Assembly (NCBI GenBank): GCA_017556685.1
Contig: JAFYMH010000018.1
Location: 1-40,023 of the forward strand
DNA from: Clostridia bacterium
GTDB lineage: Bacteria; Bacillota; Clostridia; Oscillospirales; CAG-272
Reading direction: 5' to 3'
Length of the DNA stretch: 40,023 bases
Shown here: positions 4,680 to 10,993 of the stretch, one piece after another
Numbering within the stretch: position 1 is the stretch's first letter
Layout of the letters: every line of letters starts with the position of its first letter
The notes under the pieces: generated by a model
Told to the model about the DNA's origin: nothing
The model's database searches: none
Seen by the model: only the letters and a program-made list of their open reading frames with translations
Made by a program: the position numbers and the translations under genes

Positions 4680-4704
4680 AGCATAGCACCGAAAGGAGAC
4701 GGCT

Positions 4705-6675
4705 GTGAATTTTAAAAACACCCGAAGGCTCTCGGTAGGCAAACGGCTGACGGCGCTTCTGCTTCTTCTTTGCATGAGCGCCTCGCTTCTCGTCCTTACC
4801 TCCTGCGACAACCACGACCACTCCTGGGGGACGGTCGCAACGGTCGATCTTGCCCCGAGCTGTACCGAGGACGGACGGAAATCGATCAAATGCGCGGTCT
4901 GCCAAAAGAGCAAGTCGAGCACGACGGTCACCATCCCCGCTCTTGGCCACCTTGACGCCAACGACGATCGCATCTGCGACCGCGAGGGGTGTGGAGAGGA
5001 ATGCTGGGACGGCTTTGACAGCTATGAATACGACGTCAGCACCCTCACGCCGCTTGGCGGAACGATCCGGGTCGTCGGAAACGGAACCGAGTATGCACTC
5101 GGCTCGCGCAAACGCGGTACGCTGATCGATCTTACCGAAATGGGCTACAACGTCGTTACCATCACCGGTCGCGGCAACGTTGGCTTTGATTACACCTTCC
5201 TTTCCGCTCTGCCGGTCGACGGCGAGACCCCTGCCTATGCAACGGGATACTACGGCATCACCGAGCGGCGCGATGACAAGAGCGTGTCGGTCGAGATCCC
5301 CGAGGATGCAAGCTATCTCTATCTGACCTACGAGAGCGGCGCAACGCCCTACCTTCCCTCCTCGATCGTTTTCACCGCAGAGGATGCTCTGAAGGCGCCC
5401 CTTGAGGCTCTGCAGAGCGGCTCGGCGGAAAAATACGATTATCCTCTGCACGCCATCCAAAAGGGCGAAGGAACCGTCCTTGATACCAACGGCGTTTACA
5501 CCGTTAAAAGCGAGAACGGCAACACGACCTACGTTGCCTTCATCGATATCACGGGCTCTACCTACGACACCGTCAGAGTTGGGCTTTCGCAGGTGTATAA
5601 GAATCTGCAATACACGTTTTTGACCAAAGTGCCCGCACTCGGAGAAACGCTGCAATACGCGATGGGCTACAGTGCCGAGAAGATGCCCATGGTCTTTAAC
5701 GAGGATCATCCCAGAACGAGCGAGACCGAGGGGCTTCTCCGCATCCCCGAGAACGCCGCCTGCCTTGCGCTTCTGTATACGGAGGAAACTCTTTCCGAGC
5801 AGATCTACAAGGGTCCCTCGTACGTCGTCTTTGAGGGGCAGAACCACAACAGCACACCGGTCGAGACCGACAAAAAGGTCCTTCTCATCTCGATCGACGG
5901 TCTGCGCCCCGACGCACTTCAGAAGTCCCCTTATTTCTCTCAGCTTGCCTCGATGGCGCGCTACTCGATGACCGCCGAGACCATTTATCCCTCGGTCACG
6001 CTCCCTGCACACACGAGTATGTTCCACGGTGTTTCACCCACCCTGCACGGCGTTACCGACAACGACTTCACCCCGAAGTCCTCGCTCGGAAGCGGCCTTA
6101 CCGAGGTTCTCGTGAATGCGGGAAGAAGCTGCGCGATGTTCTACGATTGGAAAACGCTTGAGAAGCTCACCCGCATCCCAAGTCAGGTCAAAATGACCTA
6201 CAACTCAGGTTCTCGCAAGCCTGCGGGTATGGAGAAATATCAGGAATCCGCAGACCTTTCGACCGCGGCGGCGATCGAGCATATCACAAGTTCCCCAACC
6301 GATTTCACCTTCCTCTATTACGGTCTGACCGACGAGATGGGACATACCTACGCCTGGATGTCGGACAAATACACCTGGGCGATCGATTACGTGCTTGCAA
6401 ACGTTCTCCGAGTGCTTGAGGTTGTCGGTGACGAGTACGTCGTCATTATCACCGCAGATCACGGCGGCGGCGGAGAAAAGCCGAAGGATCACGGCTCGAG
6501 CACCGCAGAGGATATGACGATCCCGCTCCTTATCATCGGAGAGGGCTACGAGGCGGGAACGCTTTTCGAGGGGGACCTCTCGATCCTTGACGTTGCGCCC
6601 ACCGTCGCCGAGCTTCTCGGCGTTTGCCCGAAGTCCTACTGGGAGGGCGATAGCCTGGCGGTCAAGGAAAACTAA
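4705..6675 (+). CDS. Lipoprotein with a C-terminal alkaline-phosphatase-superfamily nucleotide pyrophosphatase/phosphodiesterase domain
   Basis: GTG start after AAAGGAGA. Lipobox LTSC. Cys-rich N-terminal segment. NPP/AlkP motifs LLISIDGLRPD, YPSVTLPAHTSMFHG, GLTDEMGHTY and ITADHGG. Confidence 0.8.
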   Translation: MNFKNTRRLSVGKRLTALLLLLCMSASLLVLTSCDNHDHSWGTVATVDLAPSCTEDGRKSIKCAVCQKSKSSTTVTIPALGHLDANDDRICDREGCGEECWDGFDSYEYDVSTLTPLGGTIRVVGNGTEYALGSRKRGTLIDLTEMGYNVVTITGRGNVGFDYTFLSALPVDGETPAYATGYYGITERRDDKSVSVEIPEDASYLYLTYESGATPYLPSSIVFTAEDALKAPLEALQSGSAEKYDYPLHAIQKGEGTVLDTNGVYTVKSENGNTTYVAFIDITGSTYDTVRVGLSQVYKNLQYTFLTKVPALGETLQYAMGYSAEKMPMVFNEDHPRTSETEGLLRIPENAACLALLYTEETLSEQIYKGPSYVVFEGQNHNSTPVETDKKVLLISIDGLRPDALQKSPYFSQLASMARYSMTAETIYPSVTLPAHTSMFHGVSPTLHGVTDNDFTPKSSLGSGLTEVLVNAGRSCAMFYDWKTLEKLTRIPSQVKMTYNSGSRKPAGMEKYQESADLSTAAAIEHITSSPTDFTFLYYGLTDEMGHTYAWMSDKYTWAIDYVLANVLRVLEVVGDEYVVIITADHGGGGEKPKDHGSSTAEDMTIPLLIIGEGYEAGTLFEGDLSILDVAPTVAELLGVCPKSYWEGDSLAVKEN

Positions 6676-6693
6676 AAAAGCTCTTTCACCGAA

Positions 6694-6924
6694 AGGGGCT
6701 GCTTCCTTTCGGCATAACCGAACGAAAAAGAAAGAAAATAGGTGCTGCGCATAGGCGTAGCACCTGTTTTTTTCTTTACGTATCCTGTTTTTTGAGCTTG
6801 AAAACCTTACGGTTTTCTCCTTTTTATCGTTTTTCGTTCTATCGCCGTTCTCTCCCTCTCGTCGTATGTAAATACGCCTTCGGGTCGAGAAACGACGATT
6901 TCTGCTCGAAATCAAGCGAGCCCC
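6694..6924. repeat. Left copy of an approximately 230-bp inverted repeat flanking the 6937-8379 cassette
   Basis: By hand alignment it is the reverse complement of 8491-8719. The outer 36 nt, a 50-nt core (6800-6849) and the inner 32 nt are identical. A central block of about 42 nt has diverged. Confidence 0.9.
6740..6773 (+). terminator. Terminator inside the left repeat (serves the upstream lipoprotein gene; palindromic, probably bidirectional)
   Basis: AGGTGCTGCGC-ATAG-GCGTAGCACCT followed by T7. An A/T-rich run lies on the other side. Confidence 0.75.
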
Positions 6925-6936
6925 AAAGGGGCTGCA

Positions 6937-7806
6937 TCAAAGCGGAAAAATCAAATCCGCCGTCTCGAGGTCTTGCCGAAAGAGATGCGCCTCGCGACGC
7001 GTTCGGCAGGTATCGGTTGTAAAATGGTAAACGCCTGCCGAGAGATCCATGCACGCCGTATAGCGCGTTGAGATCAGACGTCCTCCGAGCCCCCTTGCGC
7101 ATCCGCACGGCACAGCGACTGCGTCCATCAGAGAAAAGCACCTATCGGGGGTCGCGATCTCTTTTGCGTTCTTTGCAACGTACGCCATTCGCACGAAGCG
7201 AGAGGGCGAGGAAAAATCCCCCGGCAGCCCTTCGGCGCCGTTGTCCGAGAGCACCCGAAGCGCGGGATTTTTGATCTGCTCGGCATAGCTTGGCGAGTTG
7301 GTGAGCACGCCGTACGTTGCATCAAAAACCGAAAGTCCCATCTCCAGCGGCTCAATGGCAAGCGATTCTTTCCCATCCGAGAGAAGCCAATGCAGGGGCG
7401 TTGTCGAAAGCGCCCCTGAAACGGAATCGTCTGTAATCACAACAGATGAGAGCAGCTCCCTTGCCTCCCCGATGCTTCGGCATCTGCCGAGCAACCATGG
7501 GATCAGCTCGAACGAGGCAACGCAAGTCCTGCCGGGCTCTGCCCTTTGGTAAACGGCCTCGCCCGCGAAGCGAAGCGCCGCCATCGCAAGACCGCATTCG
7601 TTCATCGCATCGTAGTAGAGCGGCAAGCCCCCGTGAAGATGTGCCATGCCAAGCATGGACAGACTCTCGCGCCGCTCTCCCCCGTACAGAAAGCGCCATC
7701 GGAAAAGCCTTGGGGCGAGCACGGCAGTCTCGCCGTACGGCTCCTCGATATCAAGCGTTCTGCAGAACCATCGTTTTCCGCGGTCAAGCGCAAGTGCAGT
7801 ACACAT
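6937..7806 (-). CDS. Choloylglycine hydrolase family protein (Ntn hydrolase, bile-salt hydrolase / penicillin V acylase type)
   Basis: True start is MCTALAL (ATG at 7806, SD GAGGGGG upstream), giving the Cys2 nucleophile typical of the family. Motifs GVLTNSPSY and GDFSSPSRF are present. The 412-aa track ORF carries a spurious N-terminal extension. Confidence 0.85.
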   Translation of the reverse strand: MCTALALDRGKRWFCRTLDIEEPYGETAVLAPRLFRWRFLYGGERRESLSMLGMAHLHGGLPLYYDAMNECGLAMAALRFAGEAVYQRAEPGRTCVASFELIPWLLGRCRSIGEARELLSSVVITDDSVSGALSTTPLHWLLSDGKESLAIEPLEMGLSVFDATYGVLTNSPSYAEQIKNPALRVLSDNGAEGLPGDFSSPSRFVRMAYVAKNAKEIATPDRCFSLMDAVAVPCGCARGLGGRLISTRYTACMDLSAGVYHFTTDTCRTRREAHLFRQDLETADLIFPL

Positions 7807-7944
7807 AAATCCCCCTCGCCTTTCGTTTTCCATATCCTTGCCCGATGCCGCCGCATTCATGCGCGGCATTTTTTCTTTTTTCCGAATGAAGCGAAGGCTC
7901 GGGCGGCATGCTAAGGGTATCAAAGAAAAAGGAAGGATCAAACG

Positions 7945-8379
7945 ATGATAGAACCCGATACGATAAAGCTGCTGCGTGAATGCGATGCGGGCGTGAAGAT
8001 GGGGATCGCCTCGATCACCGACGTCGTCGGTCACGTCACCTCCGAGGAGCTTCGCCGTCTGCTCACCGACTCGCGCACCGATCACGAGACGATCGAGAGC
8101 GAGCTTCGCTCTCTGCTCGACCGCTACGGCGACGACGGCAAGGCCCCGAGCGCGATCGCCAAGGGGATGTCGCATATGAAGACCGAGATGAAGCTGGCAA
8201 TGGATGAATCCGACAGCACGGTCGCATCCCTTATGACCGACGGCTGTGACATGGGCGTCAAATCCCTCTCCCGCTATCTGAACCAGTACAAGGCGGCAGA
8301 GGAGGATGCAAAGGATATTGCAAAGCGCCTGATCTCGATCGAGGATCGGCTTGGCAGTGATCTGCGCGCTTTTCTATAA
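7945..8379 (+). CDS. Hypothetical all-helical protein (144 aa), possibly a four-helix bundle with internal duplication
   Basis: RBS AAAGGAAGGA. Two similar segments, ECDAGVKMGIASI and TDGCDMGVKSLSRY. Family not confidently recognised. Confidence 0.6.
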   Translation: MIEPDTIKLLRECDAGVKMGIASITDVVGHVTSEELRRLLTDSRTDHETIESELRSLLDRYGDDGKAPSAIAKGMSHMKTEMKLAMDESDSTVASLMTDGCDMGVKSLSRYLNQYKAAEEDAKDIAKRLISIEDRLGSDLRAFL

Positions 8380-8397
8380 AGCACTCCGCAAACGAAA

Positions 8398-8488
8398 GGG
8401 ACTGAGTCATTAAGAACTCGGGCGTTATCATCATTTTTGAAATTGAACGAAGCTAAAACGCCGAATTCTTAGTGCGAAGTCCCTTTTT
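8398..8488 (+). terminator. Long imperfect hairpin terminator after the 144-aa gene
   Basis: GGGACTGAGTCATTAAGAACTCGGGCGTT pairs imperfectly with AACGCCGAATTCTTAGTGCGAAGTCCC, followed by T5. Confidence 0.6.
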
Positions 8489-8490
8489 GG

Positions 8491-8719
8491 GGGGCTCGCT
8501 TGATTTCGAGCAGAAATCGTCGGCTGACGAGCGAGAGGCGTACATGCGTACGCCGAGTGAGGAAACGGCGATAGAACGAAAAACGATAAAAAGGAGAAAA
8601 CCGTAAGGTTTTCCACCTTAAAAAACAGCATACGCAAAGAAAAAGACAGGTGCTACGCCTACGCGAAGCACCTATCTTCTTTGTTTTTCGTTCGGTTATG
8701 CCGAAAGGAAGCAGCCCCT
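8491..8719. repeat. Right copy of the approximately 230-bp inverted repeat
   Basis: Reverse complement of 6694-6924. The 50-nt identical core is at 8564-8613. The outer end overlaps the stop codon of the PII-like gene by 2 nt. Confidence 0.9.
8636..8673 (-). terminator. Terminator inside the right repeat (serves the PII-like gene operon)
   Basis: On the minus strand: AGGTGCTTCGC-GTAG-GCGTAGCACCT followed by a T-rich run. Confidence 0.7.
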
Positions 8720-9056
8720 ACTCTGCGGGTTTCTGTTCCCGATCTGCGCGGCCAAGTCCGACCGCGGCATCGACCGGAAGCGAAAAGGCGATTCCCTGCG
8801 CCGGGCTGTCCTGCCCGACCGCGCCGTAGAGCGCGTGCAGGATCGCATCGCGATGCTCGGTCTCGACAAGGATCAGAACCATCTCCTTTTCGGGCTCGAC
8901 CGTGATCCGGAAAAGGCGCTCCGCCTCCTTGCTCGCGGTACCGCGGGCATGGGCAACGGTTCCCCCGCGCGCACCGAATTTTCTTGCGGCATCCATTGCC
9001 GTATCGCTATAGCCTGCATTGAGAATGCAGATGATCAGCTCGTGCCCGTAGGTCAT
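8718..9056 (-). CDS. P-II-like signal transduction protein (112 aa)
   Basis: ELIICILNAGYSDTAMDAARKFGARGGTVAHARGT...PEKEMVLILV...GIAFSLPVD matches the PII-like proteins that accompany DUF1538 genes. Its ATGA overlaps the upstream gene. Confidence 0.7.
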   Translation of the reverse strand: MTYGHELIICILNAGYSDTAMDAARKFGARGGTVAHARGTASKEAERLFRITVEPEKEMVLILVETEHRDAILHALYGAVGQDSPAQGIAFSLPVDAAVGLGRADREQKPAE

Positions 9057-9454
9057 GTCCTGTCTCCCTTCGTTTCAAGATATTTACGGTTGTTGCAAAG
9101 GAACTGATAGACCGCAACGCCGATCGTTGCCGCCATCGGAACCGTAAAGGCAACGCCCTTTCCGTTCTTCAGGGCGTCGAATTTCTCCTCGAGCGCCGAG
9201 AGCACGTCGCCCGCGCGATCCTCTCGCACAACGCCGAAGAGGATCGCCTTTTCGGTCTCGGCAAGACCGAGGAGGCGAAGCATCTGCGCATCCGCCGTTC
9301 CCTTGGCGGCAAGCGCAAGCTCCAGGTTGATCTCAAAGCCCTGCAAAAAGTCAACGTAAAATTCTGCCTTCGCGCGGTTGACGATCAGGCAAAGAAGCTT
9401 AAGCCTCTGCGGTGCGGTCGGCGAGGGCCTGTTTTTCGGTTTCCGTTCTGCCAT
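9053..9454 (-). CDS. P-II-like signal transduction protein with an N-terminal extension
   Basis: LLCLIVNRAKAEFYVDFL...AKGTA...EKAILFGVV...GVAFTVPM. I prefer the ATG at 9454 (AAGGAGGGG upstream); the track start is the GTG at 9460. Confidence 0.65.
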   Translation of the reverse strand: MAERKPKNRPSPTAPQRLKLLCLIVNRAKAEFYVDFLQGFEINLELALAAKGTADAQMLRLLGLAETEKAILFGVVREDRAGDVLSALEEKFDALKNGKGVAFTVPMAATIGVAVYQFLCNNRKYLETKGDRT

Positions 9455-9466
9455 ATTCACCCCTCC

Positions 9467-10993
9467 TTACAGAAAGCTGATGATCTGCTCATCCTCGGCG
9501 TCAAGGATGCGGCGCATCGTGATCCTGTCGCGCACCGCCTTGGTCATCACCGCCTTAAAGCCGAGCAGCTGAATACTGATCAAGGGGGTCATGGCAACCA
9601 TGGCAACGATGCCAAAGCCAAGCGAAAGAACGCTCCCCGAGCCGTGAAGCGCACAGCAGACGCCGACCGAGAACGGCAAAATGAAGCTCGAGGTCAGAGG
9701 ACCGCTTGCAACACCGCCCGAGTCGAAGGCGATCGCGGTATAGATGCCCGGCACGAAAAAGGAAAGCCCAAGCGAGAGGAAATAGCCGGGAATGAGATAG
9801 TACAGGATACTGAAATCAAAGAGAATGCGGAGCATCGACAGGCAAAGCGCGACTCCGACGCCGACCGACAGCGCGATCATCATGGATCTCTTGCTGACCA
9901 TACGGTCGGTAACCTCCTCGACCTGACGGTTGAGGACGTGGATCGCAGGCTCGGCGAGCACGACCACCATGCCGAGAAAGAGCGCAAACAAGGGAAGCGC
10001 CGTCGGGCTTGCCTCGGCGATCTCAAGACCGAGGCGGTATCCGACCGGCATAAATCCGACCGTTACCGAGGCAAGGAAGGCAACGAGCCCAACGAAGGTA
10101 TAAAGGATGCCGACGCCGATCTGAAGAAGCCTCTGCTTCGGCAGGCGGAGCACCGCAAGCTCAAGCACGGCGAAGAACAAAACGATCAGCCCTAGCGCAA
10201 GCCCGACCTCCTTTGCAGTATCAAAAAGGGTATGCAAAAGATTCATCCCGAGCCCGTCGGCGATCGAGTAGGCGGGATCCTCGTAGCCAAGGCTTCCCTT
10301 TGCCGAGGTGGCAAGCAAAAGCACGGCAAGGATCGGCCCGACCGAGCAGAGGGCGATCACGCCGAAGCTGTTTTCTCCAACGTTGCGTCCGCCGATATTC
10401 GAGGCGATACCGACGCCGAGTGCCATGATGAACGGCACCGTGATCGGTCCCGTCGTCACACCGCCTGAGTCGAAGGCGAGCGACAGAAGGTCGCCGTTTC
10501 CCGAGACGAGCACGAGCGCAACGAAGGCAAAGAGAACGAAGTAAAAGAACATCAGCATCGACGAAAGATGCACTTTAAAGAGCATCTTCAGGATCGAAAG
10601 CACAAGGAAGACGCCGACCCCGACCCCGACGGTCACGATCAGAAGCGTTCCGCTCATGACGGCGCCGACCTGCTCGGCAAGCACCGAGAGATCGGGCTCG
10701 GCAACCGTGATCAAAACCCCCATCAGGGCGGAGACCGAAAGCAGGAGCTTGATGCTCCCCGATCGGGTCAGACCCGCGCCGACAAGCTCGCCCATCGGCG
10801 TCATGGCAAGATCCGCGCCGAGGTTAAAAAGCCCGATCCCAAGCACGAGGGCAACGGCGCTGAGAAGGAACACGCCAAGCTCAAGGGAGGTAAGAGAAAC
10901 GAAGGGCGTCAGATAGATGAGAAAAACGATCCCGACGACCGGCAGAACCGACACGAGCGATTCCTTTAGCTTTTTCAGCAGAATCCCGTACAA
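9467..10993 (-). CDS. Polytopic membrane protein with a duplicated DUF1538-type domain
   Basis: 508 aa and highly hydrophobic. An internal duplication carries repeated DSGGVTTGPITVPFI and DSGGVASGPLTSSFILPF motifs. TTG start with GGAGG 6 nt upstream. Confidence 0.7.
   Translation of the reverse strand: MYGILLKKLKESLVSVLPVVGIVFLIYLTPFVSLTSLELGVFLLSAVALVLGIGLFNLGADLAMTPMGELVGAGLTRSGSIKLLLSVSALMGVLITVAEPDLSVLAEQVGAVMSGTLLIVTVGVGVGVFLVLSILKMLFKVHLSSMLMFFYFVLFAFVALVLVSGNGDLLSLAFDSGGVTTGPITVPFIMALGVGIASNIGGRNVGENSFGVIALCSVGPILAVLLLATSAKGSLGYEDPAYSIADGLGMNLLHTLFDTAKEVGLALGLIVLFFAVLELAVLRLPKQRLLQIGVGILYTFVGLVAFLASVTVGFMPVGYRLGLEIAEASPTALPLFALFLGMVVVLAEPAIHVLNRQVEEVTDRMVSKRSMMIALSVGVGVALCLSMLRILFDFSILYYLIPGYFLSLGLSFFVPGIYTAIAFDSGGVASGPLTSSFILPFSVGVCCALHGSGSVLSLGFGIVAMVAMTPLISIQLLGFKAVMTKAVRDRITMRRILDAEDEQIISFL

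Follow-up and report, generated by a model that had tools for sequence, protein, structure and literature searches.

SPRITE is a small non-coding interspersed repeat of Streptococcus pneumoniae with a core that consists of a long hairpin and a T-rich tract (PMC3049150). The ends of this element are simple runs of A and T, no target duplication has been identified, and the copies show a strong enrichment at sites close to the 3' ends of genes that converge. SPRITE is thought to be a parasite that was co-opted as a terminator (PMC3049150). Here we describe an element for which SPRITE appears to be the closest analogue. It occurs twice in a 40,023-nt stretch of a Clostridia bacterium (contig JAFYMH010000018.1 of assembly GCA_017556685.1, positions 1 to 40,023; hereafter the window), at 6694–6924 and, as the reverse complement, at 8491–8719. 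The two copies enclose the genes for a choloylglycine hydrolase family protein (CBAH) and a DUF2383-like helical protein. We consider it highly probable that these arms are independent copies of a small modular palindromic repeat family that is specific to one species group, is of the same kind as MITEs (miniature inverted-repeat transposable elements), SPRITE and bacterial interspersed mosaic elements (BIMEs), and resides at the terminator position of genes.

The likeness to SPRITE concerns the placement, which is the same in 10 of 10 copies, the A/T-tract ends and the absence of a clear duplication. We regard this likeness as an analogy only. The window element inhabits a different host and has no apparent sequence relationship to SPRITE, and homology is not claimed. 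The window element is also two to three times longer (230–325 nt versus about 105 nt) and is composed of modules, with several palindromes nested in it. It has a GC content of 45–49% in a 59% GC genome, and the number of copies seen to date is low (at least 8–10).

In the BOX elements of pneumococcus and in the BIMEs and NIMEs of enterobacteria and Neisseria, modules can likewise be present, absent or swapped, and elements insert into each other (PMC3049150, PMC3184786). The modules of the window element (A-block, centre A or B, C and H5) are unrelated to these in sequence. In contrast to REP sequences and BIMEs, the family contains no 35-nt GC-rich REP units in alternating orientation and does not run to hundreds of copies. 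Its long, AT-enriched, low-copy units also differ from the REP/BIME type that is accompanied by a RAYT, and we know of no RAYT gene for this family. Correia, RUP, ERIC and bcr1 are MITEs that share with the window element terminal inverted repeats, one long hairpin, the lack of coding capacity and presence or absence depending on the strain (PMC3184786). Unlike Correia and RUP, the copies described here show no evident target duplication, bar a possible AAA or AAAGGGGCTGC at one locus. Classical MITEs are flanked by a defined target duplication, which is TA for Correia and RUP. ERIC occurs in size variants that arise from internal insertions. We know of no cognate insertion sequence (IS) for the window repeat family. 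With no apparent sequence relationship to any of these elements, this is a previously undescribed repeat family that represents a familiar type of element. Its host is an uncultured Eubacteriales lineage with 59% GC. The phenomenon as such is ordinary, and the example is well documented.

The repeat pair and its family

A BLAST search with the left unit against the window returned a single match, in reverse orientation at 8719–8491, with 88.3% identity over 231 nt (E = 1.7e-80). No third copy is present within these 40 kb. A repeat search resolved the pair into 6694–6858/8555–8719 (165 nt, 92%) and 6858–6924/8491–8557 (67 nt, 81%), and a MAFFT alignment revealed identical blocks at the outer end (36 nt), in the core (50 nt) and at the inner end (32 nt), together with a diverged central block. 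This similarity is far beyond chance. With 45–49% GC, compared to 58.8% for the whole window, the repeat is AT-enriched. The left copy starts 18 nt past the TAA of the gene at 4705–6675. The outer end of the right copy overlaps the TAG of a PII-like gene (8720–8718) by 2 nt, and 15 nt separate its inner end from the stop codon of DUF2383. A preliminary description of this DNA had reported the inverted repeats at 6694–6924/8491–8719, the identical 36-, 50- and 32-nt blocks around a diverged centre, and the 2-nt overlap with a stop codon. The three methods and the position of the PII-like TAG bear out these observations. The same description was correct as to the existence of the pair, but it drew the right unit too short. 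Positions 8395–8490 also belong to the family, as a hairpin module of ~90 nt (H5), and the right copy extends in full from 8395 to 8719 (~325 nt).

A canonical unit measures ~265 nt and contains the modules M1, T1, H2, inverted M1, a closing hairpin C and the long hairpin H5. M1 is the 36-nt outer block (AGGGGCTGCTTCCTTTCGGCATAACCGAACGAAAAA, 6694–6729, plus strand), the inner 23 nt of which form a perfect inverted repeat with TTTTTCGTTCGGTTATGCCGAAA in canonical members. T1 is a hairpin of 11–12 bp whose 5' flank is rich in A and whose 3' flank is rich in T. The strand-neutral T1 hairpins of the window (6740–6765 in the left copy, 8648–8673 in the right copy) are terminator-like and predicted to be bidirectional. 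The H2 module has the sequence GAAAACCTTnCGGTTTTC and is followed by the invariant core; in the left copy, the H2 hairpin GAAAACCTTACGGTTTTC and the core CTCCTTTTTATCGTTTTTCGTTC occupy 6800–6839 on the plus strand. In most copies of a related genome (6 of 8, see below), the core is succeeded by GGTTATGCC, which completes the perfect 23-nt inverted repeat with M1. Both window copies, as well as the copies on contigs L019 and L017, contain an extra central module of 68 nt in place of GGTTATGCC. This module comes in two types. Type A, found in the left window copy (6840–6907, plus strand) and limited to the 230-nt subfamily, holds the diverged block and a small hairpin at 6861–6878. Type B, found in the right copy (8508–8573, minus strand), holds the small hairpin GGCGTAC-GCAT-GTACGCC at 8537–8554. 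The C module reads GAAATCAAGCGAGCCCC-AAAA-GGGACyTCGC. H5 is a 90-nt long hairpin with the terminus CTCAGCCCCTTT, and is found in 8 of the 10 copies examined. The outer ends of the element form the inverted pair AAAGGGGCTG/CAGCCCCTTT, followed inward by GGGGCTGCTT/AAGCGAGCCCC; the end sequences that a cognate IS should match are GGGGCTGCTTCC... or GAGTCTAAGCARACYCAAAACGA.

In terms of these modules, the left copy (6694–6932, plus strand) directs its M1 end towards the stop codon of the 4705–6675 gene, contains a type A centre and is devoid of H5. At 6925–6932 it retains AAAGGGGC, which is left over from a second hairpin; strain L029 still has this hairpin in intact form. The right copy (8395–8719, minus strand) consists of an A-block (8574–8719), the type B centre, a C-block (8491–8507) and H5 (8395–8487), a long imperfect hairpin (−34.9 kcal/mol) that, in the direction of reading from DUF2383, precedes a run of T.

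The genomic distribution of the family was assessed by an exact-match scan for a 23-nt piece of the invariant core (CTCCTTTTTATCGTTTTTCGTTC) in one genome per species across 185,579 species. All eight matches are located in one metagenome-assembled genome (MAG; Eubacteriales bacterium, JAZNFP01), on eight different contigs. This MAG is a relative and not the same strain, as its DUF2383 orthologue is 89% identical. Family units align over 150–265 nt and range in size from 170 to 325 nt. Open reading frames (ORFs) through the unit fall into inconsistent frames and lack a start codon that is conserved from copy to copy, which marks the unit as non-coding. A search of a 5.8-billion-protein collection for spurious gene calls on copies yielded no protein match to the open frame of the unit. 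The predicted fold of a whole unit is a single giant hairpin together with H5 (z-scores between −6.8 and −9.2). The preliminary description had listed MITE-like elements among several options, and this option is supported by a family that is multi-copy, dispersed, non-coding, palindromic, and present or absent at both window sites depending on the strain.

Other searches added no members. An nhmmer profile of the canonical unit detected no further or degenerate copies in the window and 35 loci beyond those listed here. The 231-nt unit had no blastn match in phage and plasmid collections, and neither the core pattern nor the end of a nested MITE (see below) matched viral contigs. A 20-nt M1 pattern gave two matches in JGI metagenomes, both chance matches with no similarity past the 20-mer, and the lineage therefore seems to be absent there. 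At least seven metagenome contigs break inside the element, as is expected for contig ends at a multi-copy repeat. Such repeats break metagenome assemblies and can seed rearrangements, so annotation of the family is useful when MAGs are finished and strains compared. Two contigs from one MAG (L016:250–620 and L020:4170–4477) have an identical left flank (...GAGACGGAATAA) and repeat copy, followed by different right flanks. Either the assembly is chimeric at the repeat, or a duplication or recombination has really taken place. At L030:1000–1127, a degenerate copy with a T1-like hairpin and H5 lies downstream of a TMEM164-family gene, and a gene caller annotated a spurious 51-aa ORF across it.

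The copies share a characteristic placement. All ten are found 0–30 nt past a stop codon with M1 facing that codon. Eight of them lie between convergent genes, two between tandem genes and none between divergent genes; the two copies between tandem genes precede a TTGAC(A/T)...TATAAT promoter of the next gene. A bidirectional terminator hairpin is predicted in each of the ten, in agreement with the palindromic, apparently bidirectional terminators noted earlier for the window pair. The T1 hairpins have T runs on both sides and are predicted to fold on either strand (−30.9 and −20.7 kcal/mol in the left copy, −28.8 and −24.7 kcal/mol in the right copy). The plain terminators of alleles that contain no element fold with −21 to −35 kcal/mol, comparable to the −21 to −31 kcal/mol of T1, and the region contains 10 terminator-like sites where 3.9 are expected. 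H5 and its T run face DUF2383, and the C hairpin faces CBAH. H5 probably terminates DUF2383 transcription. At the right site, the ancestral terminator has given way to the element, which also supplies the G of the PII stop codon. On this basis, the element occupies the terminator position and probably performs termination, in which case the four genes next to the copies would have their intrinsic terminators supplied or replaced by them. We infer that the two copies are inverted only because each of them faces an outside gene that reads into it, and the two junctions are neighbours because CBAH and DUF2383 are divergently transcribed. The terminator position may thus serve as a safe harbour for selfish DNA, and the family provides a further example of selfish DNA that resides in, and probably serves as, transcription terminators.

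Strain alleles and the nested element

Contigs from related strains were retrieved by exact-protein look-ups. Among these contigs, each of the two window sites presents at least five alleles. The left site is occupied by a plain hairpin terminator (GAAAGGGGCTGCACGATTTCTGCTTGAAACCGTGCAGCCCCTTTTC) in L004 and L010, by a full type A unit in the window, L001 and L002, by a full type B unit in L026 and L029 (in L029 followed by the intact hairpin), by M1-T1 only in L006, L011 and L030, and by a unit with a nested element of ~280 nt in L003/L009 and L005. The right site is empty and contains an unrelated plain terminator in L011, L014, L026, L029, L030 and L033; it holds a type B unit in the window, a type A unit in L006 and L012, and the nested element in L009, L010 and L013. 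The two adjacent sites provide an unusually clear population record of empty, full, truncated, gene-converted and nested alleles. An element at the left site was seen in every lineage examined and is probably old. The element at the right site is confined to strains with a DUF2383 identity of ≥99%, and is therefore recent.

The L029 allele connects several of the left-site variants. In this strain, the unit is followed by the intact plain hairpin, and as a result a direct repeat of AAAGGGGCTGC (or AAA) is found on both sides. Deletion between the AAAGGGGCTGC repeats yields the empty allele precisely as it is found in L004 and L010. The allele of the window corresponds to the L029 allele minus 37 nt between CTGCA repeats, and the L026 allele corresponds to L029 minus 40 nt between AGCCCC repeats. 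Judging from these comparisons, the derived left-site alleles seem to stem from deletions by slippage, with the large palindrome as the promoting structure.

Each of the two sites has been found with either central type. The right-site copy of L012 has the same A-block as the right window copy, including private variants, combined with a type A centre. The right window copy in turn resembles the distant copy L019, with which it shares H5 and a type B centre, and is unlike its left neighbour. This mosaic pattern fits patchy gene conversion among family members, which would explain why identical blocks lie beside a diverged block. The earlier suggestion of recombination between such elements is supported to the extent that patches appear to be exchanged within the family; insertion or exchange of a gene cassette by this route is not.

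The nested element is a second non-coding MITE. It measures ~280 nt (but 190 nt in L017), and its terminal inverted repeats are 29 nt long and read GAGTCTAAGCA... (GAGTCTAAGCArACyCAAAACGAyAAG). Its coordinates are L009:6500–6790, L010:6500–6795 and L017:408–598. The element sits in the small hairpin of the central module, at positions homologous to 6861–6878 and 8537–8554 of the window; the type B hairpin at 8537–8554 is the nested-MITE site in strains L009 and L005. Three independent copies contain it, each with a left junction of its own (AGAG, ATGG or GGG), and no target duplication was seen at these three sites. Where the hairpin is unoccupied, it resembles its right flank duplicated in inverted form (type B, GGCGTAC-GCAT-GTACGCC; type A, GTCGTAT-GTAA-ATACGCC). 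The three sites make the nested MITE look like a hairpin-targeted insertion. Insertion of a 280-bp element at the same small hairpin in three independent copies is reminiscent of IS1397 and IS621, which insert into palindromic units. In contrast to these elements, the nested MITE is non-autonomous, we know of no transposase for it, and no duplication is seen.

The following mechanism would account for these alleles. The family may spread in trans by means of an enzyme encoded elsewhere. Copies would decay when short direct repeats, brought close to each other by the big hairpins, recombine with loss of the DNA between them, and gene conversion between family members would give rise to the mosaic pattern of identity. 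A more specific proposal is that the family and the nested MITE spread by structure-directed insertion into or beside intrinsic-terminator hairpins without target duplication. We find this unlikely, although it merits a statement of what it would entail. The enzyme responsible would be encoded elsewhere and would not be of the DDE class but of the IS110/IS1111 or HUH type. Slippage between short repeats, assisted by hairpins, would restore a working terminator, and the nested element would have a dedicated landing pad in the small central hairpin of the 230-nt subfamily. The repeat's outer end would be a hotspot for gene gain and rearrangement, as suggested by the three different left neighbours found in different strains and by an adjacent indel of a 2-kb gene with a 10-nt direct repeat (see below).

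Several observations weigh against the interpretation of the arms as independent copies of a mobile repeat family. No transposase with matching ends was found. Most copies have no clear target-site duplication; their A-rich left and T-rich right flanks do not form a direct repeat. The right-site element replaces an old spacer of 59–106 nt and is not a simple interruption. The empty left alleles occur inside an otherwise occupied clade, and may represent secondary losses rather than the ancestral state. The copy number, which comes from one MAG and an exact-match scan, is a lower bound that divergent relatives in other species would escape. Finally, the terminator activity of the element is a prediction.

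Alternative explanations

The preliminary description had also considered that the repeats are two copies of a small RNA gene. We find it improbable that the unit is such a gene or a 3' untranslated region (UTR) element selected as RNA. The unit is probably co-transcribed as 3' UTR up to T1, and its very strong folding is compatible with an RNA function. In addition, the small central hairpins of types A and B are related by a single compensatory pair change (C-G to T-A). Folding, however, does not distinguish the two strands: 13 copies fold equally well on both, with equal G-U counts, as expected for a DNA palindrome. With Rfam 15, only two tRNAs reach the gathering score in the whole window, and a search at E ≤ 10 over 6500–8900 and the nested variant returned chance-level hits only. 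No promoter-like site was found for the repeat. Moreover, the existence of presence/absence, truncated and nested alleles is the behaviour of dispensable DNA. There is no evidence that the unit is selected as RNA.

The segment 6925–8490 might be flipped if the 230-nt arms undergo homologous recombination. The arms lie 1.6 kb apart and are identical over stretches as long as 50 nt, which makes a RecA-mediated inversion physically possible. Gene conversion, which appears to occur between copies, points in the same direction. Yet the orientation is the same in all 15 contigs that contain the PII/DUF2383 junction (window included) and in all nine contigs with the left junction, although consensus assemblies may hide minor subpopulations. 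The absence of a recombinase or transposase gene from the window, stated in the preliminary description, agrees with a domain screen of the 38 main ORFs, none of which has such a domain. Furthermore, an inversion would switch nothing: both promoters lie inside the segment, and each gene would still run into a copy of the same repeat once inverted. An invertible segment is therefore quite improbable.

The preliminary description had viewed the repeats as brackets of a two-gene cassette. Two inverted copies indeed flank a two-gene segment, and MITE pairs that mobilise intervening DNA are known, including IMU and 439-bp MITE pairs that flank integrons (PMC3184786). It is very improbable, however, that the copies are the ends of a composite transposon that carries CBAH and DUF2383. 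The supposed cargo is found next to PII with zero or one flanking copy; specifically, CBAH-DUF2383-PII are adjacent without the right copy in L011, L026, L029, L030 and L033, and without the left copy in L004 and L010. In a comparison of strains for presence or absence of the cassette, the gene pair was kept in relatives that miss one or both copies. The two copies also differ in age, as described above, and in module content, with H5 in the right copy only and central modules of unlike type. No duplication flanks the whole, and the GC content of the segment (56.8%) is similar to that of the window (58.8%). These results remove the tempting interpretation of the locus as a bile-salt-hydrolase-family cassette or invertible switch.

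We give almost no weight to a local duplication that copied one terminator once into the neighbouring spacer with no wider family, which would explain why just two copies occur in the 40-kb window, since eight further copies at unrelated loci of a related MAG refute it and the right copy resembles L019 in its H5 and type B centre, not the left copy.

Three other candidates were rejected. An integron attC-like site does not agree with the dispersed core-chromosome positions; by eye, no R'/R'' GTTRRRY core was recognised, and there is no intI. A small-peptide or type I toxin ORF was dismissed on account of the start codons, which are not conserved. The idea that each site arose by simple insertion into the loop of a terminator already in place was discarded because start and end variants do not co-vary between copies. 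This also means that the GGGGCTG/CAGCCCC ends belong to the element itself.

Resident genes and neighbouring features

The CBAH and DUF2383 genes are resident parts of the chromosome and lie outside the element. The CBAH gene (6937–7806, minus strand; PF02275, E = 1.4e-53) abuts the left copy with its 3' end. The DUF2383-like helical protein of 144 aa is encoded at 7945–8379 on the plus strand. These assignments agree with the gene calls of the preliminary description. The PII-like gene occupies 8718–9056 (minus strand), and a gene for a phosphodiesterase-type lipoprotein occupies 4705–6675 (plus strand). The order CBAH-DUF2383-PII-DUF1538-ZIP-Feo is kept in relatives down to 85% DUF2383 identity, with the right site empty. 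The window represents core chromosome, as it contains shikimate and histidine operons, FeoAB and SpoIIE.

The left flank of the repeat is variable. PfkB adjoins it directly in L029 and L030, PfkB and the phosphodiesterase gene precede it in the window, and ValS-nitroreductase is found in L026. The lipoprotein gene itself is either present or absent, being missing in L029 and L030, the two strains with PfkB immediately before the repeat. The window has this gene between 10-nt direct repeats CACCGAAAGG at 4687–4696 and 6687–6696, exactly 2000 bp apart. One of these is the ribosome-binding site region of the lipoprotein gene, and the other abuts the outer end of the repeat. The CACCGAAAGG pair could be a duplication from insertion of the gene or a substrate for slippage deletion. 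At L026:2700–2990, which is homologous to ~6676–6936 of the window (97% DUF2383 identity), the completely different ValS-nitroreductase flank at the outer end of the repeat shows that a rearrangement breakpoint coincides with the end of the element. This breakpoint may have arisen from recombination between two family copies.

The divergent promoter region between CBAH and DUF2383 (7807–7944, 138 nt) contains a GC hairpin followed by a T run at 7850–7867 (GCCGCATTCATGCGCGGC ATTTTTTC), upstream of DUF2383. From its sequence, this structure could be an attenuator or leader. On the other side of the right copy, an operon at 8718–10993 codes for a DUF1538 membrane protein, a 135-aa protein and the PII-like protein, and is kept in all relatives examined. 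This operon adjoins the genes for ZIP, an iron-dependent repressor and FeoAB. The position of the PII-like stop codon differs by strain, and results in a protein of 112 or 114 aa according to the downstream allele.

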